NCBI GenBank assembly: GCA_965648915.1
Contig: CBFGIV010000002.1
Location: forward strand, 85,711 to 149,710
DNA length: 64,000 nt
From: a candidate division WOR-3 bacterium
Lineage (GTDB): Bacteria; Hydrothermota; Tepidihabitantia; SM23-42; CAYGYG01
Reading direction: 5' to 3'
A program made the translations under genes and the position numbers. The notes beneath the pieces were generated by a model. The model was not told the DNA's origin. It did not search any database and saw only the letters and a program-made list of their open reading frames with translations. Shown in pieces: positions 4,527 through 52,394 of this stretch; within the stretch, counting starts at the first letter, position 1, and every line of letters begins with the position of its first letter.

Positions 4527-5477
4527 ATGAATAATATTCTGCTTGATTTTGAAAAACCGATTTTTGAACTGGAAAAGAAGATCCAGGAATTAAAGGCAAT
4601 CAACTCACCGGAAATCGCCGAGGAGATCGATCGTCTCGAACGGCAGGCGGAAAGACTCAGAAAGAAAATCTATTCAAACCTTACCGCCTGGCAGAGGGTT
4701 CAGCTGGCACGCCATCCCCGTCGTCCTTATTCTCTGGATATTATCAATCTAATTGTCAGAGATTTTATCCAGTTACATGGAGATCGACTGTTCGGTGATG
4801 ACGCGGCGATCGTATGCGGTATCGGACAGATCGATGAGTATCCAGTCGTTATTGTTGCTGAACAGAAAGGTCGGGACATAAAGGAGAAAATCCAGCGCAA
4901 CTTTGGTAGTCCCCATCCTGAAGGTTATCGGAAGGCGTTGAGGATTTTTTATTTTGCGGAAAAATTTTCCTTGCCAATTGTCTGTATTGTTGATACCCCT
5001 GGTGCCTATCCCGGGGTCGGCGCTGAAGAACGGGGGATTGCGGAATCGATTGCCCGGAATCTTAGAGAAATGGCATTGTTAGAAACGCCCATTGTTGTCC
5101 TGATACTGGGCGAAGGTTGCAGTGGTGGGGCCATTGCGATTGCCCTTGGTGACCGAATATTGATGATGGAAAATGCCTACTATTCAGTAATTTCTCCGGA
5201 AGGCTGCGCCTCGATCCTCTGGCGTGACAGCGCCCGGGCCAAGGATGCGGCTGAGGCAATGAAGATTACGGCGCAGGATCTTGATAAATTTAAGATTATT
5301 GACCGGATCATACCTGAACCTCTGGGTGGAGCCCACCGTGATTGGTCAGTAACCGCGCAGAATATCAAACAGGCAATAATTGAGACGCTCGATGAACTTC
5401 TAAAGATCCCCATCGCGAAACTTGTTCAACAGCGTGTGGAAAAGTATCGAAGAATGGGTGTACAGCGGGAGAGTTAG
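4527..5477 (+). CDS. accA: Acetyl-CoA carboxylase carboxyltransferase alpha subunit
   Basis: ARHPRRPYSLDI, GFSLPIVCIVDTPGAYPGVGAEERG and coiled-coil N-terminus typical of AccA. Confidence 0.9.
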   Translation: MNNILLDFEKPIFELEKKIQELKAINSPEIAEEIDRLERQAERLRKKIYSNLTAWQRVQLARHPRRPYSLDIINLIVRDFIQLHGDRLFGDDAAIVCGIGQIDEYPVVIVAEQKGRDIKEKIQRNFGSPHPEGYRKALRIFYFAEKFSLPIVCIVDTPGAYPGVGAEERGIAESIARNLREMALLETPIVVLILGEGCSGGAIAIALGDRILMMENAYYSVISPEGCASILWRDSARAKDAAEAMKITAQDLDKFKIIDRIIPEPLGGAHRDWSVTAQNIKQAIIETLDELLKIPIAKLVQQRVEKYRRMGVQRES

Positions 5478-11293: not shown

Positions 11294-14200
11294 ATGCTCG
11301 GGCTGTCTTTTTTTCTGTTTACCTTCAGTTTTCAGCCACTCCCTGATGGTCTGGAATTAGACTTCAGGATCGATGCTACACCCGAGAACGGATTTTCTTT
11401 TCCGGGTGGGATCTATTATCATCCGGTAGGTGCGCCCAACCTGCCCGGTCAGTTCTTCTATATTGGTGTTCCTCAGGAGGGTGGGGTCCGGGTTGAGATT
11501 GTTGAAGAGGAGAGCCGGACCTATCCGGGCGAGATCAAGCCTGTAGGGAAGTTCTCTTTTGAAGAGACGAGTTTTGAGAAAGACCCGGAGATCTACAGTC
11601 GGGCCGAATATTATCCTGATTTATTTTTCCTTGAAGGGCCGTTTCGCTGGCGGGATTTAAGGGTGGTTCGGCTCCAGGTCAATCCGATCCGTTATAATCC
11701 CGGGAAGCGATTAGTATCGGTGACGAGCCATTTAAGGTTGCGTCTGGTCTTTGAGGGGCGTCCCCGGGTGGTGAGGCGGTCTTCGACCTTTGACAATATC
11801 TATCCGGCGGTAATCTTAAACTATGAGCAGGCGAAGGACTGGAGAATACTGGACAATCCTTTGAAGATCCATCCGATCTTTGATATGCCCTTATGGTTCA
11901 AGATGGTAGTGGACAGTGATGGTCTCTACCAGATCGATTATGAACTCCTCAAGAGGTTTATCCCTGATCCTGGACAGATCGATCCCCGGACGATAAGAGT
12001 CTATACGGCAAAATTTGATACATTAACGGGGAATGGTTCGATCTTTAATATCGATACAACTCTCTTCAATGGACTGATTGAGATTCCCATCCTGGTCTAT
12101 GGTGAGGAGGATGGCAGGTTTGATCGGGGCGACTATATTCTCTTCTATGGTTTTGGTGCGAGCCATCTCTCAATCACTAAGCCGGAGACCCTTACCTATT
12201 TCAACAACCCTTTTGATCGGAGTAATTTTTTCTGGTTGACATTCGGGGCCAAGCCGGGCAAGCGCTTCAGTCGGATTGATGGCCGGATTCAGCCGGGTGA
12301 GGTCTGCTATTTTTTGCGCCATCCGGTCCATCTTGAAGAGGAGAAGGAAAATCCAGGCCGTTCTGGACTCAACTGGGCCTGGCAGACAATGACCATTACC
12401 GGTAGTGGCTCCTGGGCTTTTCCGATCAACCATTATGGGTCTACGGGTGAGGGCAATATAAAGGTAAAGATCATCACATTTGGACATAAGTTTGAGATAA
12501 AACTATACTACAATGATTCGCTCTTCTTTGATACCCTGTGGCTATTTGGTAATGTAAATCTAAGAAAGAAACTAAACTATATCGGAGATTCAGGAATATT
12601 AAGAATTGATCTCTTTTCATCAGGTAGCGACAGTTTCAGTGTCTTTCTGGACAACTTAGAACTGAATTACCGATCCCGGCCGATTTTACAGCGTCCCCTT
12701 TATTCTCTGGTTACCGTGCCGGGCAGTTATCAATATGCGATTGGTGGAGTCCATGCACCCCCCCTGGTCCTCGACATCACCGATCTCCGTAACCCCCGGC
12801 TCTTCTACAATCTCCAGGTTGAAGGCGAATCATTATACTTTTCGCACCGGGTGGATAGTCTTGCCCTGCTCTACATCACCGATCTCAAGAAGGTGCGCAG
12901 ACCGATCCTTACTGCCGGTCGGGTGGGTAATTTAAGAAGGGAGACCGCCGGTTGTGACTATCTGATTCTGACCGCTGATGAATTTTATGAAGAGATGAAG
13001 CCATTGCTCATGTGGCGTCAGCGGGAGTATCAAGTCCGGATGGTGCGGTTGAGCGAGGTCTATAACAATTTTGGTTTTGGCAAGGAGGAGCCGGCGGCAA
13101 TCAAATATTTTCTCTACTATGTCTATCGTAACTGGCAGCCGATGCCTAAATTCGTCCTCTTTGTCGGCGATGGCAGTTATGACTATAAGAATAATTTAAA
13201 ATTAGAAAAACCGAATCGGTTCTTTCCTCCTCTGGAACAGGGTATGAATCTACAGAGTCCGGATGGCAATTATTGTTACGACGATTGGTTTGTTATGTTT
13301 AACAGTACCAAACTACCGGAGATGATTGTCGGCCGATTGAATGTCCGGAATAAACAGATGGCAAGGATTGTGGTCAAGAAGATCCTTGACTATGAGCAGA
13401 AGGTGAACCTCGGCCCCTGGGCAAAAAATATAATATTTCTGGGTGATGATGAATGGAGTCCTTATGGTCTTGAATGGGATTCAATACGGAGTTACTGGGA
13501 GCACTCAGCCAACTGTGAATCACTCCTTTTTTACATCCCCGACTCCCTGGTTGATATCACCAAAATCTATATGAATGTCTATCCGAATGAAAGCGGTAAG
13601 AAACCAAAAGCCCGCCTCGACTTTATTGCCGCAATGAATAAGGGAGCATTCTGTGGTGCCTATTATGGCCACGGCAACAATCATCAGTTAGCCCATGAAG
13701 GTGGTTTTTACGGTGAGGATGTCAATCTGGTAAAAAATGGTCCCCGCAATTTCTTCTTCTACTACGGTACCTGCAGTCCCGGCCGTTTCGATGATACAAA
13801 ATATGAATCGATCTGTGAAGAGTTTGTCTGTCGGGCCGACGGGGCCATCGGGACATACGGTGCAACCCGGGTCACCAGTCCAGGCCAGAATGTTCCGCTC
13901 GGTAACCTCATCTTTGACAATATCTTTAACAAAAACTTTACCATGGGTGAGTGCTGTTACCATGCCAAATTGATGTCACCCGCAGATATAACCTGCTGCC
14001 TCTTTGGCGATCCTGGAGTAAGATTAAATCGGCCAATCGGTGGTGTAAGTATCTCAGTCCAGCCTGATACTTTAAGACCTTTGAGTCAAGGACGGATAAG
14101 ATGCGGTGAACCAAAATATTTTCTCCGGGCAACGATCCGGGATTCTCTAACTGGCCTGACCCATTACATCGTTCGTGATCAACAGGGGAGATTTGTCGAT

Positions 14201-15052
14201 TCCTTCAATTTCTCACTTGAGGGGCAGACCTTTTTCTCGGGTGTGAGCAGTCAGGAGAGCATTGGTTTTATTGTTCCGCAGTTTGCGACCCGGCACCAGC
14301 CGGTCCTGCGCTTCAGTATCTATAACAATTTAAGATCCGGCCGGCTCGACTCGGTGCCGCTGCGCGGTCTGGCCGTGCCCTCGGGTGACATCGAGCCTCC
14401 CCGGGTCGAATTCTATGCTCAGGGCCGGAGGCTCAAGGATGGGGACTGGGTGGAGAAGAATCTTTCTCTGACCGGGGTGATTGAGGATGCGAGCGGGATA
14501 AATCTGATCGATCCGGCGCAGAACGAGAGGCAGGGTTTTGGTCTTTATGTGAATGGTAACAAGGCCGGGGTGATTGATCTGCGTAATTATTTCAGTTATG
14601 ATTTAGACAGTTATCAGCGGGGGCGATTTACCGTCGAATTAAACCTGCCGGACCGGACCGATACGATTACGGTCTATGTGAGTGACAACAACTACAATCG
14701 GACCGAGGCGAAGCTCGGTCTCCGGGTTGCCCAGGACGAAGAACTTGTGGTTGAGGATTTTTTAGTCTATCCCAATCCGCTGGACGAGGGTGGTTATTTT
14801 ACCTTTGTCCTTTCGGTCGATGCCCGGGTGAGGCTTGAGATCTACACGGTCAGTGGACGTTTTGTGCGCCGGCTCGATCATCTCCCGATGCGGGCTGGTT
14901 TCAACAAAGTCTGGTGGGATGGTCTGGATCAACGGGGTGACCGGCCGGCCAATGGGGTATATTTAGTGAAGATCGAGGCAATCCGGGAGCGGGGCGGAAA
15001 TCGAAGATCGATCTCAAGGATCGAGAAATTTATCATCCACCACCGGCCGTAA
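11294..15052 (+). CDS. Large secreted C25 (gingipain-like) cysteine peptidase-family protein with T9SS C-terminal sorting domain
   Basis: Candidate catalytic His (AYYGHGNNH) and Cys (YYGTCSPG) blocks with C25-like spacing; signal peptide; C-terminal VYPNPLDEGGYFTFVL...GVYLVKIEA is a T9SS CTD. Confidence 0.6.
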   Translation: MLGLSFFLFTFSFQPLPDGLELDFRIDATPENGFSFPGGIYYHPVGAPNLPGQFFYIGVPQEGGVRVEIVEEESRTYPGEIKPVGKFSFEETSFEKDPEIYSRAEYYPDLFFLEGPFRWRDLRVVRLQVNPIRYNPGKRLVSVTSHLRLRLVFEGRPRVVRRSSTFDNIYPAVILNYEQAKDWRILDNPLKIHPIFDMPLWFKMVVDSDGLYQIDYELLKRFIPDPGQIDPRTIRVYTAKFDTLTGNGSIFNIDTTLFNGLIEIPILVYGEEDGRFDRGDYILFYGFGASHLSITKPETLTYFNNPFDRSNFFWLTFGAKPGKRFSRIDGRIQPGEVCYFLRHPVHLEEEKENPGRSGLNWAWQTMTITGSGSWAFPINHYGSTGEGNIKVKIITFGHKFEIKLYYNDSLFFDTLWLFGNVNLRKKLNYIGDSGILRIDLFSSGSDSFSVFLDNLELNYRSRPILQRPLYSLVTVPGSYQYAIGGVHAPPLVLDITDLRNPRLFYNLQVEGESLYFSHRVDSLALLYITDLKKVRRPILTAGRVGNLRRETAGCDYLILTADEFYEEMKPLLMWRQREYQVRMVRLSEVYNNFGFGKEEPAAIKYFLYYVYRNWQPMPKFVLFVGDGSYDYKNNLKLEKPNRFFPPLEQGMNLQSPDGNYCYDDWFVMFNSTKLPEMIVGRLNVRNKQMARIVVKKILDYEQKVNLGPWAKNIIFLGDDEWSPYGLEWDSIRSYWEHSANCESLLFYIPDSLVDITKIYMNVYPNESGKKPKARLDFIAAMNKGAFCGAYYGHGNNHQLAHEGGFYGEDVNLVKNGPRNFFFYYGTCSPGRFDDTKYESICEEFVCRADGAIGTYGATRVTSPGQNVPLGNLIFDNIFNKNFTMGECCYHAKLMSPADITCCLFGDPGVRLNRPIGGVSISVQPDTLRPLSQGRIRCGEPKYFLRATIRDSLTGLTHYIVRDQQGRFVDSFNFSLEGQTFFSGVSSQESIGFIVPQFATRHQPVLRFSIYNNLRSGRLDSVPLRGLAVPSGDIEPPRVEFYAQGRRLKDGDWVEKNLSLTGVIEDASGINLIDPAQNERQGFGLYVNGNKAGVIDLRNYFSYDLDSYQRGRFTVELNLPDRTDTITVYVSDNNYNRTEAKLGLRVAQDEELVVEDFLVYPNPLDEGGYFTFVLSVDARVRLEIYTVSGRFVRRLDHLPMRAGFNKVWWDGLDQRGDRPANGVYLVKIEAIRERGGNRRSISRIEKFIIHHRP

Positions 15053-19014: not shown

Positions 19015-22000
19015 ATGAATTTAAATGAAGAGCGGCGATTAATAACGATTCTTTTTGCTGATCTATCGGGGTTCACCACTCTTGCCCAGCATCTTGATCC
19101 TGAAGAGGTCAGTGAGGTAATAAATATCTGCTTCGGTCATTTAAATCCGATAATCACACACCATGGGGGCGTAATTCATAAGTATGAAGGTGACCTGGTT
19201 ATCGCGCTATTTGGGTTACCGGTTACCCATGAAGACGATCCGGAACGTGCGGTCAGGGCGGCCATAGAGATGATGGCTTCTGTACCCGAGATAAATGCAT
19301 CGCTCCTTAATAGGTTGAGTATCCGGAGTAGTGTCGATCTCCATATCGGAATCAGCAGTGGAGTTGTTTTTGTGGGCGAAGTTGGCTCAAGGGAAAAACA
19401 CGAATACACCGTAATGGGTGAAGTGGTAAATCTGGCTTCGCGTCTCAAAGATACAGCAAAAGCTGGCGAGATCCTTATTGCAGAGACAATCTATCGGTTA
19501 ACCCATTATCTTATTGAAACTGTCCCCCTGCCGCCAGTTAAACTTAAGGGCATCGAGGGCGAAGTAAGAATTTTCAAAGTCCTGGGTTTGAAATCCGAGC
19601 CGGAACCGGAACGTGGCATAAGAGGACTATCTTCACCACTGGTTGGTCGGGACCGAGAGTTCGCCCTGCTTAAAACTGCGGTTGAACGTCTGACCCAAGG
19701 AAAGGGTGGTATAATTTTCATCATCGGCGACCCCGGAATCGGGAAATCACGTCTTTTTGAGGAAATAAGGAATTTCATTATTACTGAGGAGATACCAATC
19801 ACCATATTTGAAGGTCGTTGTCTTGCTTATGGTGAAAATCTTGCTTATCATCCGTTTTTGCCGGTTTTAAGAAAAATTACCGGTATTACTGAAAAAGACT
19901 CAGTCAGTGATATTCAGAATAAATTAATCAGATTTACCGCCGAACTCTTTCCGGATGATTATAAAAGTGTCGCGCCCTACATCGGTTATCTCTTTTCTAT
20001 CCGTTATGGTGACGAACTGGATGAAAAGGTTAAGTATTTAGACCCCAAGGGTTTAAGGTATCAGATCTTTTTGAGTATAAAGAGATTACTTTTTGCTCTG
20101 GCTCAGAGGCAACCACTCCTGTTGGTTATTGAAGATTATCACTGGATCGATACTGAATCTTTAGAACTGCTTGAATTCATATATGAGCAATCAATTTCGG
20201 CGCCGATGCTGATGTTCGCTTTATCGCGCTTTGTCAAAGAAAAGATCCCAGGGATAGTAAAAGAGCGGCTCCGCAAAAAACTCAGCGAAAATTTTACCGA
20301 AATAATTTTAAGACCACTCGATCGAGATGCCGGGGCCCAACTTCTTTACAATCTATTAAATTTTCCGGACATCAGTCCGGACCTGAAAAACCAGATATTG
20401 ATGAAGGCCGACGGTAATCCATACTTTGTCGAAGAAATAATTCGTTCTTTGATTGATACCAGTAAACTTAAATTCACATCCGGACGATGGAAGGCGATCG
20501 GAGACTTTACGACGATTACCATTCCCGACACGATTCAACTGTTACTTACATCACGAATTGACCAGCTGGATGATGATGTGAGAAACGTACTGCAACAGGC
20601 TTCAATAATTGGGAGAATTTTTGATGTCGAATTGTTAGAACTGGTAAATGGTGCAAATCATCTTATGCTCAGCCTTTATCTCGCAACCCTTGAGGAATTT
20701 GGATTTATAATGCGGGTACCGGGTGAGGGTGATCTGCGTTACCAGTTTCGTCACCCTCTCTTGTATGAGGTGGTCTACAATAGCATTTTGAAAAAAAACC
20801 GACGATCGTTACATCGGAAGGTAGGTGAATTGATCGAAAATATTCATAAAGAGCGACTGGATGATTGGGCGGAGGCGCTTGCCCATCAATATGGTCAGAG
20901 TGATAATTATGAAAGGGCAATGCACTGGCTGATGCGGGCAGGGTATAAAGCCAAGGGACGATATGCCAATGATGAGGCAATCAGTTTCTTCGAGAAACTG
21001 ATTGCAATAACAACAACCGTAACCAAGGTTGAAAAAGAAGTCCGGAGGCGGTATCGGGTTCAGGCCTCAGAAGCGCTAGGGGAGTTATATTTCTTAACCG
21101 GTAGGTATGATCAGGCAATCAAAAATTTTGAAATGATGCGCGACAATGCTCAGAGCGTTGGCGATCGAGCACGGGCCCAGCGACAGTTGGCTACGATTTA
21201 TCAGAATCAAGGACAGTATGATTTTGCTTTACAGTTACTCGATGAGATTGAAAAGTCGTTCACCGGTACGTCGCTATCTGAAATATTGGAACGAGTAGAA
21301 ATTATGATTCTAAGAGGCTGGATATACTGGGTGCGGGGGATGCTGGAACCGGCGCGGGCCGAGTGTGAAGAAGCTATCAATCTTTTAGGTAAACTTAACC
21401 CCGAGGAGCAACTGGTGAAGGCGCTTAAAGCAACAGCAATGAGTCGACTCGGATTAATTGCTCAAACAAAAGGAGAATATGAGAAGGCAATTGCATATAA
21501 TGAAGAGGATTTAAGACTCTCTCGAGAAATTGCCAATAAAAAAGGTATCAGCCGTGCCTGCTGTAATCTCGGTAGTATCTACAAAGAATTCGGTCAGTAT
21601 GATCGGGCGATTGAGTATTATGATGAAGACTTAAGAATATCAGAAGAGATCGGTGATAAACAGGGGATGGGGATAACGGCAAATAATTTAGGCACGATCT
21701 ATTTGATTAAAAAGGATTATGACCGGGCACAAGAACTTTTTCAAAAATACCTGATTATCTCTCAAGAGACTGGATATCTCCAGGGGATGGGCACGGCCAA
21801 GCTCAATCTCGGGTCGTTGGCCCTGCGGGTCTCCGAAATTGAAGATGCTGAGAAAAATTTGCTTGAAGCCGAAGCGATTCTTAAAGAAATCGGTTATCAT
21901 AGTGTCTTGATTACGGTCTACATTTTACTGGCCGAACTCTATCTGGTGCACCGAAAAGAGATGAAGAAGGCGTGGTCTTATCTCAATCGGGCCAGACAAT

Positions 22001-22266
22001 TGAACCGGCAAGTGGATTCAAAATCACAGTGGGCAAAGATATTTTTTGCTTATGGTAAGATGAATATGGAGCGAGGTGAGTGGTTAAAGGCGGGAAAGAA
22101 CTTTGACCGAGCAGTGGAGAGATTTCTTGAACTTGGTGAGTTGAAGTATGCGGCCGAGGTTTATGAGAAATATGCCGAGTTATTCCGATTGACAGGAGAT
22201 AGAGAGAGAAATAATTTATATTCCCAAAAGGCGAAAGATATCTACAAGAAGTTAGGAGTATCTTGA
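19015..22266 (+). CDS. Class III adenylate/guanylate cyclase domain + P-loop (STAND/AAA-like) NTPase + TPR-repeat protein
   Basis: N-terminus ITILFADLSGFTTL with metal-binding Asp, and VMGEVVNLASRL, are class III cyclase motifs; Walker A GDPGIGKS; C-terminal half has multiple TPR-like repeats. Confidence 0.8.
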   Translation: MNLNEERRLITILFADLSGFTTLAQHLDPEEVSEVINICFGHLNPIITHHGGVIHKYEGDLVIALFGLPVTHEDDPERAVRAAIEMMASVPEINASLLNRLSIRSSVDLHIGISSGVVFVGEVGSREKHEYTVMGEVVNLASRLKDTAKAGEILIAETIYRLTHYLIETVPLPPVKLKGIEGEVRIFKVLGLKSEPEPERGIRGLSSPLVGRDREFALLKTAVERLTQGKGGIIFIIGDPGIGKSRLFEEIRNFIITEEIPITIFEGRCLAYGENLAYHPFLPVLRKITGITEKDSVSDIQNKLIRFTAELFPDDYKSVAPYIGYLFSIRYGDELDEKVKYLDPKGLRYQIFLSIKRLLFALAQRQPLLLVIEDYHWIDTESLELLEFIYEQSISAPMLMFALSRFVKEKIPGIVKERLRKKLSENFTEIILRPLDRDAGAQLLYNLLNFPDISPDLKNQILMKADGNPYFVEEIIRSLIDTSKLKFTSGRWKAIGDFTTITIPDTIQLLLTSRIDQLDDDVRNVLQQASIIGRIFDVELLELVNGANHLMLSLYLATLEEFGFIMRVPGEGDLRYQFRHPLLYEVVYNSILKKNRRSLHRKVGELIENIHKERLDDWAEALAHQYGQSDNYERAMHWLMRAGYKAKGRYANDEAISFFEKLIAITTTVTKVEKEVRRRYRVQASEALGELYFLTGRYDQAIKNFEMMRDNAQSVGDRARAQRQLATIYQNQGQYDFALQLLDEIEKSFTGTSLSEILERVEIMILRGWIYWVRGMLEPARAECEEAINLLGKLNPEEQLVKALKATAMSRLGLIAQTKGEYEKAIAYNEEDLRLSREIANKKGISRACCNLGSIYKEFGQYDRAIEYYDEDLRISEEIGDKQGMGITANNLGTIYLIKKDYDRAQELFQKYLIISQETGYLQGMGTAKLNLGSLALRVSEIEDAEKNLLEAEAILKEIGYHSVLITVYILLAELYLVHRKEMKKAWSYLNRARQLNRQVDSKSQWAKIFFAYGKMNMERGEWLKAGKNFDRAVERFLELGELKYAAEVYEKYAELFRLTGDRERNNLYSQKAKDIYKKLGVS

Positions 22267-37088: not shown

Positions 37089-38174
37089 TTATGAGCGAAA
37101 TTTCCGTAATTTTAAACTTTTTACTACCTGTTGATAATCAGGCAGAATTACCTTACCCTGAGCCCGGTCGTAAATATAAATATCATCCAGGGGGTGAGGT
37201 GGAATCGTTTCGATGAATCTACTCTTTAATAAATCATTAAGATCTTCGGGAAAGGTATTTTTTGCTGCTTTATAAGCAATTAATCTCTGGTTAATAATTC
37301 TAACATTCATTTCGAGGAGATCATAGAGTAGTGTCGAATTTAATACCTGACCACTGTCTTGAATAAAATAGAGACCGCCGAAAGGTTCCTCAGGGATTAT
37401 GGGTATAACCTTTTTATCAACCAGTTCAGATAGTTGTCGGGGATAGGAGTGGTATTTCTTGTAATATTCGTCAACGGCTTTGCTTAAAACTTCCATATCT
37501 TCTTCAATCTGAATGTAATTCAATGAGCGGCGAGCCAACTTTTGACGAGATGGTGTGGTCGCGGAGAGTTCAATCTTTTTCCAGAGATCGCGTGCCGCCG
37601 AACGATTTCCGGCTTTACGATAGGATTGGGCAGCAAAACGGATGGATCGCCCCATAATACCTTCATTGAGATATGCAAGATAGAAGTATTTGGCGGCGCG
37701 CTGGTAATTGTAGGTTATTGTGTAATTTATAAAACCAATGTCGAACGGTAATTCATACCTTTGAGGATTTTGATACATTCCCCGAAGGAGTAATTGAATC
37801 GCCCTTTCTGGCTGATTGAGGTCCTCTGAGATCAACAATCCACCAAACCGATAGCCGTTAATAAAGAATGGATCGAGCACGGTCAGGATGTCGAATATAT
37901 GGGGTAACCAATAGAAATTCAAATCGGTAAGGATATGTTGGCCATAATACTGGATGGCTTTTAACCAGACAAAGTCGGCAAGGGTCGTTTCATAATCACA
38001 GGCCATAATCTTAAGAAGACGACCTGAAGGGAAATATCTCATCTCAAAAAGAGTTTGATCAGGAGTTGATTTATAGAAGTCGAGCGCCAGATGGAAATTG
38101 TGCAGGCAGATGGCACTGACAATTATGAGAAGAAAAGGTATGATACGATAGAATTTAATTCTAATTTTGTTCAT
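37089..38174 (-). CDS. Hypothetical N-terminally membrane-anchored protein (operon partner of the ABC-2 transporter)
   Basis: Start moved to internal ATG 38174, directly after the upstream stop; one N-terminal TM helix, remainder helical and repeat-like. Confidence 0.4.
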   Translation of the reverse strand: MNKIRIKFYRIIPFLLIIVSAICLHNFHLALDFYKSTPDQTLFEMRYFPSGRLLKIMACDYETTLADFVWLKAIQYYGQHILTDLNFYWLPHIFDILTVLDPFFINGYRFGGLLISEDLNQPERAIQLLLRGMYQNPQRYELPFDIGFINYTITYNYQRAAKYFYLAYLNEGIMGRSIRFAAQSYRKAGNRSAARDLWKKIELSATTPSRQKLARRSLNYIQIEEDMEVLSKAVDEYYKKYHSYPRQLSELVDKKVIPIIPEEPFGGLYFIQDSGQVLNSTLLYDLLEMNVRIINQRLIAYKAAKNTFPEDLNDLLKSRFIETIPPHPLDDIYIYDRAQGKVILPDYQQVVKSLKLRKFRS

Positions 38175-38175
38175 C

Positions 38176-38937
38176 CTAAAGGTCTTTTTTCTCAAAAATG
38201 ATAACGGCGATTGATAAAAGAATGATAATATATGCAATAGTATAGGCTGAGACGAAGATAAGCCACTGGTTGGTAATTGGTAGATTATGGACAAACTCAG
38301 TTTTGCTGTTTAAGTAAGAAAGGTTGGGAAGAATATAATAGAATAGGGTTGATAGATCTTTCAAGATTAGGGATTTGGCAATCTGGGCGAAGGCAAGGAG
38401 ATCCTGTGTAAAATGGCCAATAAAATATATTGCAAAAGTAAAGATACCGCTACCGATTGGCGTTGTGAAGGTTGAAAGGAGAATGGCGATTGCGGCGATC
38501 AAGAGCAATTCAAGAAGAATGAAGTAGATGGTTTTGGGGAGATTTAAGGTTAAAGGATATTTAAATATGAGCGAATAGACGACAAAACCCGCGGTAAGGA
38601 CAAGTACGACGATTAGCAACGCAAGAGATATGCCTAGATACTTACCAAGGATAAATTGCCAGCGCTGAACCGGTTTGGGTAGTATGGTGTAGATGGTTTT
38701 GCGTTTGATTTCGTCGTAGACAAGCCGGGTCCCAATGATAATAGCAATCAGGATGCCGAATATTGAGATGGCGGAAGTCCCGATGTCACGGACAATTCTT
38801 AAATCTTCATCGAGGGATAGAGGGGCAATGAGCTTGGAACTTAAAATAATCAGAAGACCAAAGATAATGATTGCATAAAATGTTCGGTCCCTTAATATCT
38901 CTTTAGTCGTATTGATTGTTATAGCTACTATCTTCAT
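38176..38937 (-). CDS. ABC-2 family transporter permease
   Basis: 6-TM 253-aa protein, translationally coupled to the ATPase. Confidence 0.65.
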   Translation of the reverse strand: MKIVAITINTTKEILRDRTFYAIIIFGLLIILSSKLIAPLSLDEDLRIVRDIGTSAISIFGILIAIIIGTRLVYDEIKRKTIYTILPKPVQRWQFILGKYLGISLALLIVVLVLTAGFVVYSLIFKYPLTLNLPKTIYFILLELLLIAAIAILLSTFTTPIGSGIFTFAIYFIGHFTQDLLAFAQIAKSLILKDLSTLFYYILPNLSYLNSKTEFVHNLPITNQWLIFVSAYTIAYIIILLSIAVIIFEKKDL

Positions 38938-39866
38938 CGATTCTTGAGCACTTGAGTGATAAAGTGTTCTTCAAGGGTTTTAGTATGGGGTTGGAGACTG
39001 ATCAGACGACCACCCAATTCTCTTATTTTATCCACTGCCTGATCTGCATCATCCGGGGTTGAAAAGATAAATTGTATCTCTTTACCAAATTGATTAACAT
39101 AAGTAGCACTTCTTCCGACAATCTCGATACCGTCCTCGGTCAAGCCGATTGCGGTTACCTCGATCGATTCGATACTCTGCTTGAGGAGTTCATCAACGTG
39201 ACCGACTGATGCCAATCTACCGTTTAACAGAATACCGACCCGATCACATATAACTTCCACATCGGGCAGGATATGGGTTGAGAAGAAGACGGTCTTACCC
39301 TTCTTTTTCATTTCCAGCATTATATCTTTTACATCTTTTCGACCCAGAGGATCGAGGCCTTCCATTGGTTCATCAAAGATTAAAAGGTCGGGATCGTTGA
39401 TCAATGCCTGGGCAATACCGAGACGCTGGACCATCCCCTTGGAATATTTAGAGATCAAAAGGTCACCAGCATCTTTTAAACCTACTTTTGCTAAGGATTC
39501 CTCAATAAACTTTCTCTTATCCTGACAATGGATATTGTGGACCTGAATGCAGAAATCGAGGAATTCGGAACCGGTAAGATGGGCATAGAAGTAAGGGTGC
39601 TCAGGTAAATATCCTGTCTTTTTTCTGATTGATATGTCTGTGACGGGCCTATCGAATATAAATGCCTGACCCGAGGAGGGAAAGATGAGGCCGGTAAGTA
39701 TCTTTATTGTTGTTGTCTTGCCCGCACCGTTAGGCCCTAAAAAACCAAAGATTTCACCCGGTTCGATAGTCAGGCTGAGATCTTCCAGTGCCCGAATCTT
39801 ACGCCGGGTCATCTGGGTGCGAAAGTATTTGGAGAGGTTTCTAATCTCGATTGCAAATCTATTCAT
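38934..39866 (-). CDS. ABC transporter ATP-binding protein
   Basis: Walker A GPNGAGKTTT, signature LSKGMVQRL, Walker B LLIFDEP. Confidence 0.88.
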   Translation of the reverse strand: MNRFAIEIRNLSKYFRTQMTRRKIRALEDLSLTIEPGEIFGFLGPNGAGKTTTIKILTGLIFPSSGQAFIFDRPVTDISIRKKTGYLPEHPYFYAHLTGSEFLDFCIQVHNIHCQDKRKFIEESLAKVGLKDAGDLLISKYSKGMVQRLGIAQALINDPDLLIFDEPMEGLDPLGRKDVKDIMLEMKKKGKTVFFSTHILPDVEVICDRVGILLNGRLASVGHVDELLKQSIESIEVTAIGLTEDGIEIVGRSATYVNQFGKEIQFIFSTPDDADQAVDKIRELGGRLISLQPHTKTLEEHFITQVLKNR

Positions 39867-40062: not shown

Positions 40063-40098
40063 ATAACAAAAAGGGGATAGCCATTTTTGACTATCCCC
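40063..40098 (-). terminator. Rho-independent terminator of pilin gene 1 (minus strand)
   Basis: Minus-strand GGGGATAG-N10-CTATCCCC followed by TTTTTGTTATT. Confidence 0.65.
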
Positions 40099-40117
40099 AG
40101 ATTACTGCTGATGGTTT

Positions 40118-40639
40118 TTAGTTGTGGAAGACCAGAATGGTATTGGAACGGATAGACCTGTAGTCTCTACCCCTTATTCCAATAATTCCATATTCTGTAG
40201 GATTAACTCCTGGCCAGATACCATATCGAATCTTACCAACATCGGCAGCTGCAAGCTGTATGTCATTGGCACCACCGAGTTTGATATCACTATTATCACC
40301 AGAAGCAGCGTAGGTATGTTTAATGAAATCAGCAATTACCATTACATTCCCAGTATAAGGGTTCTTTGGATATTTACCAGGTGTCTTCTGCACATCTTCA
40401 TCCCCACCAGGGAAATAATAGGCAAATCCTGGTGCAGGTTCTGGCCCGGTTGGATAGGCTCCATTAAAATCAACGGCATAGGCTTCACAGGAGAGCTGGG
40501 TTGTATGCATATTACCCTTGACACTTGACTGTCTGCCTCTTTCCTGCATAGCGATGAAGTTCGGGATCGCAATTGCAGCCAGAATACCGATAATGACGAC
40601 CACAACCATCAGTTCGATTAAGGTAAAGCCTCTTTTCAT
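40118..40639 (-). CDS. Type IV pilin / prepilin-type N-terminal cleavage-methylation domain protein (paralog 1)
   Basis: MKRGFTLIELMVVVVIIGILAAIAIPNF class III signal peptide; AGGAGG SD. Confidence 0.8.
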   Translation of the reverse strand: MKRGFTLIELMVVVVIIGILAAIAIPNFIAMQERGRQSSVKGNMHTTQLSCEAYAVDFNGAYPTGPEPAPGFAYYFPGGDEDVQKTPGKYPKNPYTGNVMVIADFIKHTYAASGDNSDIKLGGANDIQLAAADVGKIRYGIWPGVNPTEYGIIGIRGRDYRSIRSNTILVFHN

Positions 40640-40852
40640 TTTAACCTCCTTGGTGAATTACAATAAACTAATGTAATTCCAATTTTACTCATAACTCAAA
40701 TGCAGTGTGTCCCGGAGTTTTGATAGAGATTTTATTGGACAGGCTTGGGACACAGACCATTAGAAGATCTTTATTCCAATAAGCCTATTTATTATATCAT
40801 AAAATTAAAATAAGGTCAATGAGCAATTTTTCAATTTCTATTAATAAGTATA

Positions 40853-40869
40853 TGCAAAACTTGTGCCAC
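40853..40869 (-). promoter_or_regulatory. Sigma-54 (-24/-12) promoter, perfect consensus TGGCAC-N5-TTGCA, facing pilin gene 1
   Basis: Minus strand reads GTGGCACAAGTTTTGCA. Confidence 0.65.
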
Positions 40870-40926
40870 TAATAAGTATTGTTATATTAAGCATTATATC
40901 CTGCTCAATTATAGAATTTGCAATTT

Positions 40927-40944
40927 TTTTTGCAAAATGCAAAA
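40927..40944. promoter_or_regulatory. Putative enhancer (UAS) for the sigma-54 activator: TTTTGCAAAATGCAAAA
   Basis: TGCA-N3-TGCA dyad ~65 nt upstream of the -24 element; same element repeated at 41571-41590. Confidence 0.45.
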
Positions 40945-40952
40945 AATTATCT

Positions 40953-41492
40953 TCAGTTATGGAGAAGAAATATGATCATTCCTTCCCTTATTGACCTGCC
41001 GTCCTTACGACTGCCAATTATGCCATATTCGGTTGGCAATGTATTCGGTGGTGCAGGGGGTGGAAAGATACCGTAGCGAATCATACCGGCTCTTGGTGCC
41101 AGCCAGTCATTGGGTCCACCGATGCTACTATTACTATTCTCACCGGAATTACCATAATTAATAACCACGATATCAAGAGGGGTTAGGGGTAATGAGGTCC
41201 AGGGATTATTAGGATAAGTGCCGGGCCTTGTCTGTTTCTCTTCATCACCATTCGGAAAGTAATAGGCAAAACCATAAGGTGAGGTTTCTGGCCCAAGCGG
41301 ATAGATACCGCCGAAATCTGCGGCAAACATTTCGACCGAGAGATGGACTTCATGACAGTTGTTTTTGTGTGAGGCCTGGCGGGTCCTTTCCTGAATTGTT
41401 AAGTAGTTAGGAATAGCAATGGCGGCAATAACACCAATGATTACTAAAACTACCATAAGTTCGATCAGGGTAAATCCTTTTTTATCCTTCAT
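40953..41492 (-). CDS. Type IV pilin / prepilin-type N-terminal cleavage-methylation domain protein (paralog 2)
   Basis: MKDKKGFTLIELMVVLVIIGVIAAIAIPNY; shares the YGFAYYFPNGDE block with paralog 1. Confidence 0.8.
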   Translation of the reverse strand: MKDKKGFTLIELMVVLVIIGVIAAIAIPNYLTIQERTRQASHKNNCHEVHLSVEMFAADFGGIYPLGPETSPYGFAYYFPNGDEEKQTRPGTYPNNPWTSLPLTPLDIVVINYGNSGENSNSSIGGPNDWLAPRAGMIRYGIFPPPAPPNTLPTEYGIIGSRKDGRSIREGMIIFLLHN

Positions 41493-41506
41493 AATGACAA
41501 TTTAAT

Positions 41507-41524
41507 AAGCAAAAATTATGCCTG
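41507..41524 (-). promoter_or_regulatory. Candidate sigma-54-like -24/-12 element (AGGCAT-N5-TTGCT) upstream of pilin gene 2; only ~5 nt of leader predicted
   Basis: GG-N10-GC spacing present on the minus strand; weaker match than the pilin 1 promoter. Confidence 0.3.
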
Positions 41525-41570
41525 AATAATTTACTGAAAAATCAGAGGTTTTAATCGAGTTTTCATAATA

Positions 41571-41590
41571 TTTTTGCATTTTGCAAAAAT
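41571..41590. promoter_or_regulatory. Second copy of the TTTTTGCA-N3-TGCAAAAATTAT putative UAS
   Basis: TTTTTGCATTTTGCAAAAAT abuts the stop codon of the regulator gene. Confidence 0.45.
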
Positions 41591-42876
41591 TATCCCTTCC
41601 TTATCTTTTTAAGTTTTCGATAGAGGGTTGACGGATGCATCCCGAGCCGGTGGGCGGCCCGGACCACATTCCCTTTTTCTATCTTTAAGGTCTTAGTAAT
41701 CTCTTTGTATTCAATCTCAGCCAGAGAAGATGTGGTAATTTTGGGCTCAAAGGATGGGAAGAACTGGGGGGTGATAATGGACTTATCACAGAGGATTGCC
41801 ATTCTCTCCACAACATTCTCCAGCTCCCGGATATTACCCGGCCAGTGATACTCTTTTAATGCCTTGATTGTCTCCTTAGCAAATGTCTTCTCTTTTATGC
41901 CCATCTTCTGGCAGATATTTTTGAGGAAGTGTTCGGCTAATATAGGGATATCTTCAACCCTTTCTCTCAGTGGGGGCAGGAGAATCGGGAAGACATTGAT
42001 TCGAAAGTAGAGGTCTTCGCGGAATTTTCCCCGGGCGACTTCTTCCTCAAGATTCTTATTGGTTGCGGCAATGAGGCGGACATCAACTTTGATCGGAGTG
42101 GTGGAGCCAAGAGGGACAATCTCTTTTTCCTGAAGCAGTCTTAAGATCTTCATCTGGATTGATGCCGGTGCATCGCCGATCTCGTCGAGGAAGAAACTCC
42201 CCTGATCGGCGGCAAGGAGGAGTCCTTCTTTATCCTGATGCGCACCGGTGAAGGCGCCTTTCTTATAGCCAAAGAGTTCACTCTCGAGAAGGGTCTCCGG
42301 GACTGCAGCACAAGAGAGGGTGATGAATGGTTTGGAACTGCGATTTGATCTTTGATGAATCTCCTTTGCAAATAGTTCTTTACCGGTCCCGCTCTCACCC
42401 AGGATCAAGACCGTGGCATCGGTGTTAGCAACCCGATCGACCAGTTCTAATGCCTTCCTGATGGTTTCGCTTTTACCAATGATTGCTGAGGATTCGACCG
42501 GTTTAATCTTTTTCGGTCTCAATACCGCATCGAGCCTTTGATAGAGTTCATTCAGGGTGAAGGGTTTTAAGAGATAGTCGTTTGCCCCGCCCCTTAATGC
42601 CTCGATCGCCGATTCCATCGAACCATAGGCGGTTATAAATATGACTGGTAAATCGCTATCAATCTTCTTGGCCTCTCGTAAAAATTTAAATCCATCCATA
42701 TCAGGCATCTTGATATCGGAGATGACACAGTCGATCTTCTCTTTTTTTACTAAGTTGAGTGCGGTATGAGGATCGGTCGTTGGAACGGGGAGGTAATTTT
42801 TCTGTTTTAAGGCGACGGAAATCCAGTCGACCATACTCTGCTCATCGTCAAGGACCAGGACACGAAATTTCTCCAT
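41590..42876 (-). CDS. Sigma-54-dependent two-component response regulator (NtrC/PilR family: REC + AAA+ + Fis-type HTH)
   Basis: Receiver Asp (VISDIKMPDMDG); Walker A GESGTGKE; GAFTGA sigma-54 contact motif; C-terminal HTH AAHRLGMHPSTLYRKLKK. Confidence 0.9.
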   Translation of the reverse strand: MEKFRVLVLDDEQSMVDWISVALKQKNYLPVPTTDPHTALNLVKKEKIDCVISDIKMPDMDGFKFLREAKKIDSDLPVIFITAYGSMESAIEALRGGANDYLLKPFTLNELYQRLDAVLRPKKIKPVESSAIIGKSETIRKALELVDRVANTDATVLILGESGTGKELFAKEIHQRSNRSSKPFITLSCAAVPETLLESELFGYKKGAFTGAHQDKEGLLLAADQGSFFLDEIGDAPASIQMKILRLLQEKEIVPLGSTTPIKVDVRLIAATNKNLEEEVARGKFREDLYFRINVFPILLPPLRERVEDIPILAEHFLKNICQKMGIKEKTFAKETIKALKEYHWPGNIRELENVVERMAILCDKSIITPQFFPSFEPKITTSSLAEIEYKEITKTLKIEKGNVVRAAHRLGMHPSTLYRKLKKIRKG

Positions 42877-42905
42877 AAATAATTATAATATTATTTTAGG
42901 AAAAG

Positions 42906-43679
42906 TCAAGGAGCAATACCGGTCTTCTGGGCAAAGAGAAGATATGCAGTATGGGTGATGGACCGTTCTCTTGGCCTTGTGCCGGTGTGGCGAATTAAGA
43001 TCTCGCGCATCATAATCTCACTGGTCTCAATCCGCTTAAAATTCTTAATCTCGAGTATCTCTTTGGTTTTTTTAATCTGTTCGATATTCGGGCTGAGACT
43101 GACCAGATGGTGGCCACCGGCGAGGGCAATGCTTGCGGGCTCGATTACAGTCCAGGGTTCGGGTATATCGATAAATATGGCATCGACCTCTTTATGCTTT
43201 AACCCTTCCTTTGCTACATCAGACAGGATAAATTCTACATAATCTGAAAGTCCACACCGTGTCAGATTCTTCTTACTAACTTCGATAAATTCACTCCGCC
43301 TTTCATAGGTATAGATCTTTCCATCGGGCTGGACCATCCGGGCGAGAAGAAGGGTAAGGGCACCACTGCCGGTTCCGATCTCAATTACCTTTGAACCCGG
43401 TCCGATTGCGGTCTTCAAGACCATCATCCCTGCATCCTTAGGGTAAACGATTGTTGTCTGCCTTCGGACCTTCATCATCAGATCGGCAATCGATGGTTTT
43501 AAGAGATAGAACGGTTTATTTAAGTGGGTCTTGAGTTCAGCACCAAATCTCTGCCCGATGATTTCATCTAATTTTATATTGCCTTGATGGGTCGAAAAAG
43601 TCAAACCACGCTTTATCTCAAGCAGGTATTCACTCTTTTCATCAAAATAGATAATAACCAGGTCGCCTTCTTTAATCAT
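42906..43679 (-). CDS. trmI: tRNA (adenine-N1)-methyltransferase, TrmI/Gcd14 family
   Basis: N-terminal beta-domain then VIEIGTGSGALT SAM motif; TrmI-like length. Confidence 0.75.
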   Translation of the reverse strand: MIKEGDLVIIYFDEKSEYLLEIKRGLTFSTHQGNIKLDEIIGQRFGAELKTHLNKPFYLLKPSIADLMMKVRRQTTIVYPKDAGMMVLKTAIGPGSKVIEIGTGSGALTLLLARMVQPDGKIYTYERRSEFIEVSKKNLTRCGLSDYVEFILSDVAKEGLKHKEVDAIFIDIPEPWTVIEPASIALAGGHHLVSLSPNIEQIKKTKEILEIKNFKRIETSEIMMREILIRHTGTRPRERSITHTAYLLFAQKTGIAP

Positions 43680-50990: not shown

Positions 50991-52394
50991 TCAAAAAGGA
51001 GGGGCTTCCTGGGGGAAGATTTTTCCCGGGTTAAGGATATTTTTGGGGTCGAAGATTTTTTTAATCCTTCTCATAAGTTCAATCTGGACTGGATCAAGGG
51101 CCATAGGTAGATAGGATTTTTTAACCAGACCGATACCGTGTTCAGCAGTTATCGTTCCACCAAGTTCAATGGTTATCTGATAGACACGCTCGATTAATTT
51201 TGTTAAATGCGCACGGTCAAAGCCCTCCTGGGCAAGGAAATCACAGTGGATGTTTCCATCACCCATATGCCCAAAGGCAAAGAGTTTTACTCGATAGATA
51301 TTCTCGAGAGCCTTGAGTTGATTGATGAGTTCCGATACCCGGTTCCTCGGAACAACCAGATCTTCCCGGGCAACCATCATCCCGAGGGTCTTAAGTTCAC
51401 CAGTTTTTCTCCTTGTCTCCCAGATTCGATCCTGAGTTGGACGATCTTCACCAACCAGAACCTCAAGGGCTTTACTTTCATAGGCTGATTCACCTATCTT
51501 CTCGTATATTTTTCTCAGTTGCTCGATATCATCACCGTCGATCTGAACAATCAGTTGAACCCCGGCCTGGGAAAAGGGCAATGGATGGCCCAGGACCTTT
51601 TCGACACCCCGCACCACCTCACCATCCATAAGTTCAACTGCACTGGGGACAATCCCCTTTTCGAATATTTTGGGCACAAAACTTGCTGCTTCCTCAATCT
51701 TGACAAACGGGATGAGAAGATCGATCCGGGCCCTGGGCAGGGGCAGGAGTTTCAATGTGGCTTCGGTAATTACTGCCAGCGTCCCTTCAGAACCGATAAT
51801 CAGATCGAGCAGGCTATAACCAGCAACATTCTTCAACAGTTTACCGCTTAATTTTGTAATTGAGCCGTCAGGTAGAACGATCTCTAAACCCATTACATAG
51901 TTGCGGGTGACTCCATATTTGACTGCCTTAGGGCCACCCGCACACTCGGCAATATTACCACCGATGCAACAGGAGTCGATGCTGACCGGGTCCGGGGGAA
52001 AGAAGAGATTGTATCTTTCAAGAACTCTCCCCAGTTCACCGGTAATTATTCCTGGTTCGACCACCACCATTGAATTTTCGATATCGATCTCTTTAATCTT
52101 ATTCATCCTTTCAAAGGATATAACAATGCCCCCAAAGATGGGAATTGCCCCACCCGATAGACCGGTTCCCCCGGAACGGGGTGTCACCGGGATCATCTCA
52201 TCATTGGCTAAATTCATTATTTCAGAAACCTGTTTGGTATTTTCAACTTTTACTACAACTTCAGGCATCGCACAAAATATTGGAGTCTCATCATGGGAGA
52301 AGGGTTCTAATTTGTCCTGGGTTGTTAAGCAGTTTTGCGCGCCGACAATCTTTTGTAAGATCTCGACGATCTGTGGTGTAACTTTATTATACAT
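50991..52394 (-). CDS. FAD-binding oxidoreductase (GlcD / D-lactate dehydrogenase family, FAD_binding_4 + FAD-oxidase_C)
   Basis: PRSGGTGLSGGAIP FAD-binding motif; C-terminal HGIGL-like HMGDGNIH. Confidence 0.85.
   Translation of the reverse strand: MYNKVTPQIVEILQKIVGAQNCLTTQDKLEPFSHDETPIFCAMPEVVVKVENTKQVSEIMNLANDEMIPVTPRSGGTGLSGGAIPIFGGIVISFERMNKIKEIDIENSMVVVEPGIITGELGRVLERYNLFFPPDPVSIDSCCIGGNIAECAGGPKAVKYGVTRNYVMGLEIVLPDGSITKLSGKLLKNVAGYSLLDLIIGSEGTLAVITEATLKLLPLPRARIDLLIPFVKIEEAASFVPKIFEKGIVPSAVELMDGEVVRGVEKVLGHPLPFSQAGVQLIVQIDGDDIEQLRKIYEKIGESAYESKALEVLVGEDRPTQDRIWETRRKTGELKTLGMMVAREDLVVPRNRVSELINQLKALENIYRVKLFAFGHMGDGNIHCDFLAQEGFDRAHLTKLIERVYQITIELGGTITAEHGIGLVKKSYLPMALDPVQIELMRRIKKIFDPKNILNPGKIFPQEAPPF

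Follow-up and report, generated by a model that had tools for sequence, protein, structure and literature searches.

Gene content of the regulator-pilin locus

Within a 64,000-nt window from a candidate division WOR-3 bacterium (contig CBFGIV010000002.1), to which all coordinates refer, the minus strand between 40063 and 42876 encodes, in order of transcription, an NtrC-class regulator (41590-42876, 428 aa), a type IV pilin that we call pilin 2 (40953-41492, 179 aa) and a paralogous pilin, pilin 1 (40118-40639, 173 aa), all three recognized by Pfam. An initial annotation of this region had proposed a PilR-like, NtrC-family activator beside two paralogous pilin genes, each with a dyad-symmetric upstream activating sequence (UAS) and a -24/-12 promoter; all of its feature coordinates were recovered in the window sequence, and comparative evidence from related loci (numbered L001 onwards; 167 were compared with the window proteins by tblastn) supports that proposal. 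We conclude that the locus is very probably a module for type IVa pilin expression, of the 'pilR-pilA-pilGHI' kind known from Myxococcus and Geobacter, in an uncultivated WOR-3/Stahlbacteria-like bacterium, with a PilR-type activator driving both pilins via sigma-54.

The regulator consists of REC, Sigma54_activat, AAA_lid_14 and HTH_8 domains (Pfam). Its AAA+ domain matches PF00158 with E = 3.4e-70, the GAFTGA motif is present in the translation, and the Fis-type helix-turn-helix (HTH) carries the recognition helix MHPSTLYRKLKK. Given that the REC domain keeps the acidic pocket (D10/D11) along with D54, T82 and K104, a kinase encoded elsewhere is to be expected. Orthologues in L001 and L007 share 75-77% identity with the window protein, and regulators 40-61% identical to it were found in ~60 loci; in ~59 loci, regulators of 40-60% identity end ~250-800 nt upstream of a pilin gene. 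The arrangement typical of PilS-PilR systems, in which a regulator with REC, AAA+ and Fis-HTH domains adjoins the major pilin gene on its upstream side, is therefore present in the window and likewise in these ~59 loci. The regulator gene is preceded by a sigma-70-type promoter, TTGACT-16-TATAAT (42882-42909, minus strand; 11/12 match), which presumably serves it. Because the -10 hexamer stops 5 nt before the ATG, a leaderless regulator mRNA is predicted, and because a Shine-Dalgarno (SD) sequence was observed for just 18 of the 49 window genes, SD-independent initiation appears normal in this stretch.

Both pilins begin with prepilin N-termini (MKRG/FTLIE in pilin 1 and MKDKKG/FTLIE in pilin 2, the slash separating positions -1 and +1), have PF07963 as their only Pfam match and are 57% identical to each other. 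Pilin 1 has the N-terminus of a type IVa major pilin, with G(-1), F(+1) and E(+5) in a class III signal followed by a hydrophobic alpha1-N (MKRG/FTLIELMVVVVIIGILAAIAIPNF) and with matches to both PF07963 and TIGR02532. It is predicted to combine a long alpha1 helix with a small beta domain; an AlphaFold2 model (pLDDT 77) shows a 50-residue alpha1 and a small sheet, the predicted fold is nearest to that of type IV pilins, and the best PDB matches of the pilin profile, Myxococcus xanthus PilA (8tj2) and Geobacter PilA-N, extend over alpha1 only. The pilin 1 family comprises ~26 sequence clusters with full-length similarity, outside of which generic pilins and pseudopilins match only the N-terminal half of the protein, and pilin 2 belongs to a separate orthologous group (78% identity to L007 5109-5648 and 65% to L001). 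In a search of genome and metagenome collections with the pilin alignment, the patterns were dominated by the generic alpha1 motif; it yielded no new full-length pilin orthologues, and the 160 loci obtained served for comparison of regulators, promoters and UAS elements. The SD and the clean terminator that had been ascribed to pilin 1 are both in place: AAGGAGG at 40645-40651 (minus strand), and an intrinsic terminator at 40063-40098 (minus strand) in which an 11-bp stem running from 40098 to 40073, with 6 GC pairs, is followed by TTTTTGTTAT. Given this strong SD, its own terminator and the dual promoters described below, pilin 1 is probably the major pilin.

Probable sigma-54 promoters and upstream dyads

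The promoter assigned to pilin 1, P1 (TGGCACAAGTTTTGCA, 40853-40868, minus strand), is a perfect TGGCAC-N5-TTGCA element that is conserved in all orthologous loci. It is the sole perfect TGGCAC-N5-TTGCW site in the 64 kb, with 0.04 expected from shuffles, and would initiate transcription at ~40842, placing ~203 nt between the predicted start and the pilin 1 ATG (40639). The promoter assigned to pilin 2, P2 (AGGCATAATTTTTGCT, 41508-41523, minus strand), carries two mismatches and leaves GG and GC intact. The initial annotation had noted a weaker GG-N10-GC element before pilin 2; the element is present, and although by itself it is at chance level, being among 21 window sites with no more than two mismatches where 19.9 are expected, it is conserved in L001 and L007, where sites with a single mismatch (GGGCACGGCTTTTGCA and AGGCACAGATTTTGCA, respectively) occupy the orthologous position. 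The -12 C of P2 lies 16 nt from the pilin 2 ATG (13-15 nt in L007 and L001), and from this spacing we therefore predict a pilin 2 mRNA, starting at ~41497 in the window, with a 5' untranslated region (UTR) of 2-5 nt (~5 in the window and 2-4 in L007/L001) and no SD.

In 56 of 59 related loci, a -24/-12 site with at most two mismatches and with GG and GC fixed was observed in the interval separating regulator and pilin, as opposed to only 10% of random 380-nt windows drawn from the same loci. The view that such a regulon is unusual outside Proteobacteria is not supported by this comparison, since the regulator-sigma54-pilin module in these 56 of 59 loci spans many non-proteobacterial candidate phyla. 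At 51672, 54524 and 55042 the window has three further near-consensus -24/-12 sites; these lie inside open reading frames with no dyad nearby and were judged to be chance matches.

Each of the two promoters is accompanied by a dyad. The centre of UAS-1 (TTTTTGCA-AAA-TGCAAAAA, 40927-40945) lies ~94 nt upstream of the sigma-54 start predicted for pilin 1, and that of UAS-2 (TTTTTGCA-TTT-TGCAAAAA, 41571-41589) ~83 nt upstream of the start predicted for pilin 2. UAS-2 abuts the regulator stop codon (41590-41592), and each of the two 19-mers is the exact reverse complement of the other. TTTTGCA-N3-TGCAAAA occurs exactly twice in the window, at 40928-40944 and 41572-41588, with 0.00 expected, and the bare TGCA-N3-TGCA is found only at the same two places, with 0.58 expected. 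The concern raised initially, that the element might be frequent in AT-rich DNA irrespective of context, is thereby answered: it appears just twice in 64 kb. Together, GG and GC exactly 10 nt apart in a TGGCAC-N5-TTGCW context (perfect in P1, two mismatches in P2), a cognate AAA+ enhancer-binding protein with GAFTGA, and a UAS within the range of ~80-150 bp upstream of the start, here near -94 and -83, suggest that on every feature testable from sequence both promoters belong to the sigma-54 enhancer-dependent class.

We observed the same arrangement beyond the window. Of 14 upstream regions from close relatives, 12 have their best 7-3-7 dyad at a distance of 57-79 nt upstream of the -24 element, and the dyads of L001 and L007 that are orthologous to UAS-2 lie 58-59 nt from it. 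Across the wider set, 26 of 54 loci have TGCR-N3-YGCA (31 sites) within the 200 nt that precede the -24 element, compared to just 1.4% of 1080 control windows; L023, from a WOR-3 metagenome-assembled genome (MAG) whose regulator is only 43% identical, has an identical TTTTGCAAAATGCAAAA, and in L101 the dyad still accompanies the promoter though the regulator gene is elsewhere. Because the dyad recurs in this way upstream of the -24 element, TGCA-N3-TGCA can be regarded as the core of a family-wide enhancer. The half-sites themselves have drifted: the window and L007 have TTTTGCA, L001 and L169 have TTTCGCA/G, and L002, L003, L049 and L171 combine TGTCNCA with TGAGACA. This drift tracks the recognition helix of the HTH (MHPSTLYRK versus (I/V)SRATLYRK), a co-variation which argues that the adjacent regulator binds the dyad.

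Closer to P1, an auxiliary degenerate site, TTGCA-AAT-TCTA (40912-40923, minus strand), can be proposed from the sequences 19 bp promoter-proximal to the UAS-1 centre. In L001 and L169 its counterpart, 20 bp away, is TGCG-AAA-TGCA/G, a second complete dyad. Tandem sites are typical of NtrC-like enhancers (PMC11841059), and by analogy the second site near UAS-1 fits such a layout. A pair of sigma-70-like hexamers overlapping UAS-1 (40908-40936) is not conserved in L001 or L007 and was set aside. Two sequence resemblances were also seen at these elements: the left flank and half-site of UAS-2, AGGGATAATTTTTGCA (41582-41597, minus strand), is itself GG-N10-GC spaced and 93% identical to P2 over 15 nt, and the -12 element of P1, TTTTGCA, is identical to the UAS half-site.

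A probable second promoter and a pseudoknot leader RNA ahead of pilin 1

The ~200-nt leader initially attributed to pilin 1 holds as to length (~203 nt from P1), but it is not a plain leader, as it contains both a sigma-70-type promoter and a pseudoknot RNA. The promoter, TTGACC-17-TATAAT with a TG extension (40791-40819, minus strand), matches 11 of 12 consensus positions and lies ~45 nt downstream of P1, its start being predicted at ~40784. TTGACA-N17-TATNAT stands at the same place in every orthologous locus examined (L001, L002, L003, L006, L007, L024, L044, L049, L101, L169 and L171). Between the sigma-54 and sigma-70 promoters we noted a conserved box, (G)ATC(T/A)TTGA(C/A)A (window ~40820-40835, minus strand; L002 5600-5660; L006 2290-2350; L044 ~4800-4830), and in L002 and L006 an inverted repeat, TTGACAATTC...GAATTGTCAA, brackets the -10 hexamer, with an imperfect version in L003. 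The box and the inverted repeat may be an operator for an unknown repressor.

Immediately downstream, a conserved H-type pseudoknot (40707-40786, minus strand) was delineated with a covariance model and covariation analysis. Its first stem, S1, pairs AGGCUU (40786-40781) with AAGCCU (40746-40741) and starts at the predicted sigma-70 transcription start; its second, S2, pairs GUGUCCC (40753-40747) with GGGACAC (40713-40707). Relatives beyond the closest clade carry an extra hairpin, GGUUNC...GNAACC. With only S2 and this hairpin annotated as structure, a covariance model (R1) made from 11 sequences found three further instances, in L024, L044 and L101. The resulting 14 independent loci, all of WOR-3/TA06 type, carry the RNA directly upstream of a pilin gene and behind the same arrangement of UAS, sigma-54 and sigma-70 promoters; R1 gave no convincing match elsewhere in 1.2 Mb. 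In the 14-sequence alignment, 94.8% of cells pair and seven pairs have changed on both sides, whereas slid registers pair just 27-49%. None of 500 shuffles reached the observed value for cells paired, for pairs or cells changed on both sides, or for the covariation score. Because S1 is absent from the R1 structure, its support is independent of alignment fitting, and the new matches contributed independent compensations in both stems (C-G to U-A in S1 of L044; G-C to A-U in S2 of L101).

Searches of Rfam 15 returned no relevant match at E <= 10 in the window region or L009, and none at the gathering score in 10 loci. A LasI-thermometer match (E = 1.3), which overlaps the UAS, was put down to chance, and a GEMM-like cyclic di-GMP (c-di-GMP) riboswitch, considered on account of a CAAAGCC string, is matched by no Rfam model. 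We also rejected an SD-pairing AAUCUCU in the minimum free energy fold of the window as an expression platform, the anti-SD not being conserved; no conserved expression platform was found in the leader, terminator-like hairpins occurring only in some loci. The RNA could possibly be a 5' stabilizer, a protein-binding leader or a riboswitch. A bolder interpretation, which we consider rather doubtful, is that it represents a new class of cis-regulatory RNA, either a riboswitch or a protein-binding leader, that gates pilin synthesis post-transcriptionally and stands in for the PilS-type pilin sensing missing next to the regulator, responding for example to a second messenger or to the pool of unassembled pilin. 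The leader RNA may be new in kind, and it is the only part of the locus of which this can be said.

Several relatives show further elaboration of the 5' UTR. Tandem (A/T)ATTCG(T/C)GA repeats lie between the pseudoknot and the SD at L003 5940-6000, L173 130-190 and L171 2890-2990, and are absent from the window, and five YCUGAU repeats are found inside loop 1 in L006; such repeats may be protein-binding sites. At L003 5768-5830, the 5' strand of S1 with its flank, AAGGCUUUNUNAUGAAG, is tandemly duplicated ~52 nt apart, offering two alternative partners for a single 3' strand. A locus lacking the leader RNA was also encountered: L168 1-6531 (JGI 3300027888) encodes a pilin sharing 64% identity with pilin 1 (P0011); no regulator gene adjoins it, two large GGDEF-AAA_16-TPR proteins flank it, and this gene has its own TGGCATGAATCTTGCA site and a different palindrome, GTATCAAATTGATAC. 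A cyclase-AAA_16-TPR protein resembling these L168 neighbours is encoded in the window at 19015-22266.

Module synteny, alternative explanations and known systems

The pilin unit extends past the region first annotated (40063-42876) into an operon with ATP-binding cassette (ABC) transporter genes (37089-39866). On the minus strand this comprises an ABC transporter ATPase (38934-39866; Pfam, with GldA as best NCBIfam match, below the cut-off), an ABC-2 permease (38176-38937; Pfam and synteny) and a membrane-anchored protein of tetratricopeptide repeat (TPR) fold (37089-38174; 361 aa from the ATG at 38174). The last of these has no Pfam or NCBIfam match; it is predicted to comprise an N-terminal membrane helix and a TPR superhelix, and a homologue search with it recovered only 11 relatives, none of them named. 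With an ATPase, a permease and a further protein encoded directly after a pilin gene, as after pilA in M. xanthus, the three proteins can be described by position as PilH-like, PilI-like and PilG-like, respectively.

Homologue contigs repeat this order: regulator, pilin or pilins, ABC ATPase, ABC-2 permease, an unannotated ~350-aa protein and sometimes another pilin. The source labels of pilin-homologue contigs point to WOR-3/Stahlbacteria-type MAGs, and regulator-pilin loci are labelled Eisenbacteria, Krumholzibacteriota, WOR-3, TA06, Fibrobacteraceae, Gemmatimonadota and others. Pilin, ATPase, permease and unannotated protein lie on one strand in 61 of 167 loci, and in a Myxococcota MAG and delta-proteobacterial MAGs (L059, L074 and L083) the order is pilin, unannotated protein, ATPase, permease, that is pilA-pilG-pilH-pilI. 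L013, from a 3.6-Mb contig and with a 43% identical regulator, encodes in turn PilT (T2SSE), PilC (T2SSF), a PAS/HisKA/HATPase kinase, the regulator, the pilin, the ABC ATPase, the permease, a homologue of the unannotated protein and PilM. The layout in Myxococcus and Geobacter type IVa pilus loci is pilT-pilC-pilS-pilR-pilA-pilGHI...pilM (PMC6060248, PMC3724824). Because L013 shows this layout, we regard the window regulator as PilR-like and the downstream trio as PilH/PilI/PilG-like. Type IV pilus assembly genes accompany the module in L013, in L135 and in further loci, and the window can be read as a lineage in which the module has become detached from pilS and the assembly genes.

A number of observations weigh against this assignment. 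NCBIfam gave the regulator NtrC-class matches only, all below equivalog cut-offs, and its PilR-like identity is assigned from context and synteny. No rpoN gene or RpoN box was found in the 64-kb window or the fetched loci, and the window contains no PilS-like histidine kinase; the initial annotation had proposed looking for both. Neither a prepilin peptidase nor PilB/C/M-Q genes are encoded in the 64-kb window. The cognate kinase expected beside a PilR is not adjacent here, the upstream neighbour of the regulator being a TrmI-type methyltransferase, and the placement of the window locus among PilS-PilR systems draws on synteny in relatives. P2, with its two mismatches, is not significant on its own. 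Because of its conserved sigma-70 promoter, pilin 1 is probably not exclusively sigma-54 dependent. The trio is a putative counterpart of PilH, PilI and PilG, assigned by position. Lastly, pilin 1 has one Cys (C51) and hence no D-region disulfide; a C-terminal disulfide of this kind is not universal in pilins outside Proteobacteria.

Under a different explanation, the pilins would be pseudopilins of type II secretion (T2SS) or of another type IV filament, or else substrates of the ABC transporter, and the regulator a generic NtrC-family enhancer-binding protein. The labels that homologues bear in their sources ('type II secretion system protein G'), an NCBIfam GspG match to the N-terminal 60 residues of the pilin and the absence of assembly genes from the window would all agree with this. 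The GspG match, however, scores below the cut-off and is confined to alpha1, M. xanthus PilA is the best match in both NCBIfam and the PDB, and T2SS pseudopilins normally reside in gsp operons, whereas the L013 module sits between PilT/PilC and PilM, which are type IVa pilus genes, and several other related loci are flanked by Walker boxes resembling those of PilT or PilB. We therefore consider this explanation very unlikely. We find it improbable, to a lesser degree, that the internal sigma-70-type promoter is the main driver of pilin 1, with control by the leader RNA, the sigma-54 promoter and dyad being auxiliary or vestigial for this gene. That promoter does match 11 of 12 positions with a TG extension, is conserved in all orthologous loci and has the RNA beginning at its predicted start; yet P1 matches the consensus perfectly, it has been conserved in these loci together with its UAS to the same extent as the sigma-70 promoter, whereas vestigial elements would decay, and sigma-54 and sigma-70 promoters can coexist.

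Another protein, for instance a repressor or a nucleoid protein, might bind the dyads instead, or chance in AT-rich intergenic DNA might account for the dyads and the -24/-12 matches. The intergenic DNA of the locus is indeed AT-rich, TTGCA is common to the -12 element and the dyad half-site, and a sigma-70-like hexamer pair overlaps UAS-1. Chance is nevertheless excluded by the shuffles and by positional conservation across loci of very different GC content; the half-site changes in step with the recognition helix of the adjacent regulator and the dyad stays with the promoter even where the regulator gene is elsewhere (L101); both variants together strike us as extremely unlikely.

Among the studied pilus systems close to the proposed PilR-type module is M. 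xanthus pilSRAGHI. The two share an NtrC-type regulator immediately upstream of the major pilin gene and an ABC trio after it, and alpha1 of M. xanthus PilA (8tj2) is the best PDB match of the window pilin. M. xanthus pilA is reported to be sigma-54 dependent (Wu and Kaiser 1997, as cited in PMC3724824). The ABC ATPase, permease and accessory protein that follow the M. xanthus pilin are needed for pilus biogenesis (PMC3724824, PMC6060248). Unlike M. xanthus, the window lacks an adjacent PilS kinase and assembly genes, has a separate UAS and promoter for each of two paralogous pilins, orders the trio as ATPase, permease and TPR protein and not as G-H-I, encodes an unrelated C-terminal pilin domain, and adds a sigma-70 promoter and pseudoknot leader to pilin 1. 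M. xanthus NmpR offers a parallel for the enhancer: its element, GCGCA-N5-TGCGC, is present as two sites one to two helical turns apart upstream of the sigma-54 site and supports step-wise oligomerization (PMC11841059). The window shares the dyad-symmetric GCA...TGC half-site pair and two spaced sites upstream of a sigma-54 site, but has a spacer of 3 nt rather than 5 and involves a different regulator and a different regulon.

In Geobacter, PilS is adjacent. Geobacter pilR lies immediately upstream of pilA, whose promoter is RpoN-dependent (PMC2725144), and PilA-N of Geobacter sulfurreducens is among the best PDB matches to the window alpha1. The Geobacter pilin is short and split (PilA-N/PilA-C). 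A literature search for sigma-54 pilins in WOR-3 and for a Geobacter PilR site consensus returned nothing usable. In Pseudomonas aeruginosa, the NtrC-class regulator PilR binds upstream of pilA and activates it with sigma-54, at sites described as TGT-N11-AGA plus GTCT elements (PMC6058289). The window dyad is instead TGCR-N3-YGCA, and whereas PilS of P. aeruginosa senses PilA directly, no kinase is linked to the window locus. For the leader, an analogy can be drawn with Clostridioides difficile, in which a c-di-GMP-II riboswitch lies upstream of pilA1. Both are structured RNAs, conserved in the 5' UTR of a major pilin gene; the window RNA differs in being an H-type pseudoknot with variable loops and without an Rfam match, c-di-GMP classes included, and in that no conserved terminator or anti-SD platform was found in it.

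We propose the following model for how the module may operate. The orphan PilR-type regulator (41590-42876), made from its own sigma-70 promoter, would be phosphorylated on D54 by a kinase encoded elsewhere, and its dimers would bind the 7-3-7 dyads TTTTGCA-N3-TGCAAAA near -83 (pilin 2) and -94 (pilin 1). Upon oligomerization, ATP hydrolysis and the GAFTGA loop would open the closed complexes of sigma-54 holoenzyme at P2 and P1, P2 giving a nearly leaderless pilin 2 mRNA and P1 a pilin 1 mRNA with a ~200-nt leader, ending at the terminator (40073-40098). The sigma-70-type promoter (40791-40819) would additionally produce a pilin 1 transcript that starts at the pseudoknot RNA; because it does so, pilin 1 probably has both basal and inducible transcription along with a post-transcriptional layer. 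The ABC ATPase, ABC-2 permease and TPR protein encoded downstream would be the counterpart of PilH, PilI and PilG. With respect to the host, the first cultured WOR-3 strain bears pili (PMC12285271). Elsewhere in the window, proteins at 328-1629 and 11294-15052 (plus strand) between them carry a type IX secretion (T9SS) sorting domain, Por_Secre_tail, as well as Peptidase_C25 and FlgD_ig domains, which fits an FCB-superphylum organism with type IX secretion.

Collectively, these findings indicate that the PilR/sigma-54 pilin circuit and its linked ABC module, textbook in Pseudomonas, Myxococcus and Geobacter, are conserved in many uncultivated phyla, and they allow better labels for genes now listed as 'hypothetical' or 'T2SS protein G' in MAGs. 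Phylogenetic footprinting provides a testable dyad, TGCR-N3-YGCA, for the regulator family, along with a natural case of co-evolution between recognition helix and operator. The circuit is of an ordinary, known kind, and it is the leader RNA that is probably new: as a structured RNA coupled to dual promoters, it offers an entry to post-transcriptional pilin control in lineages that have only just been cultured.

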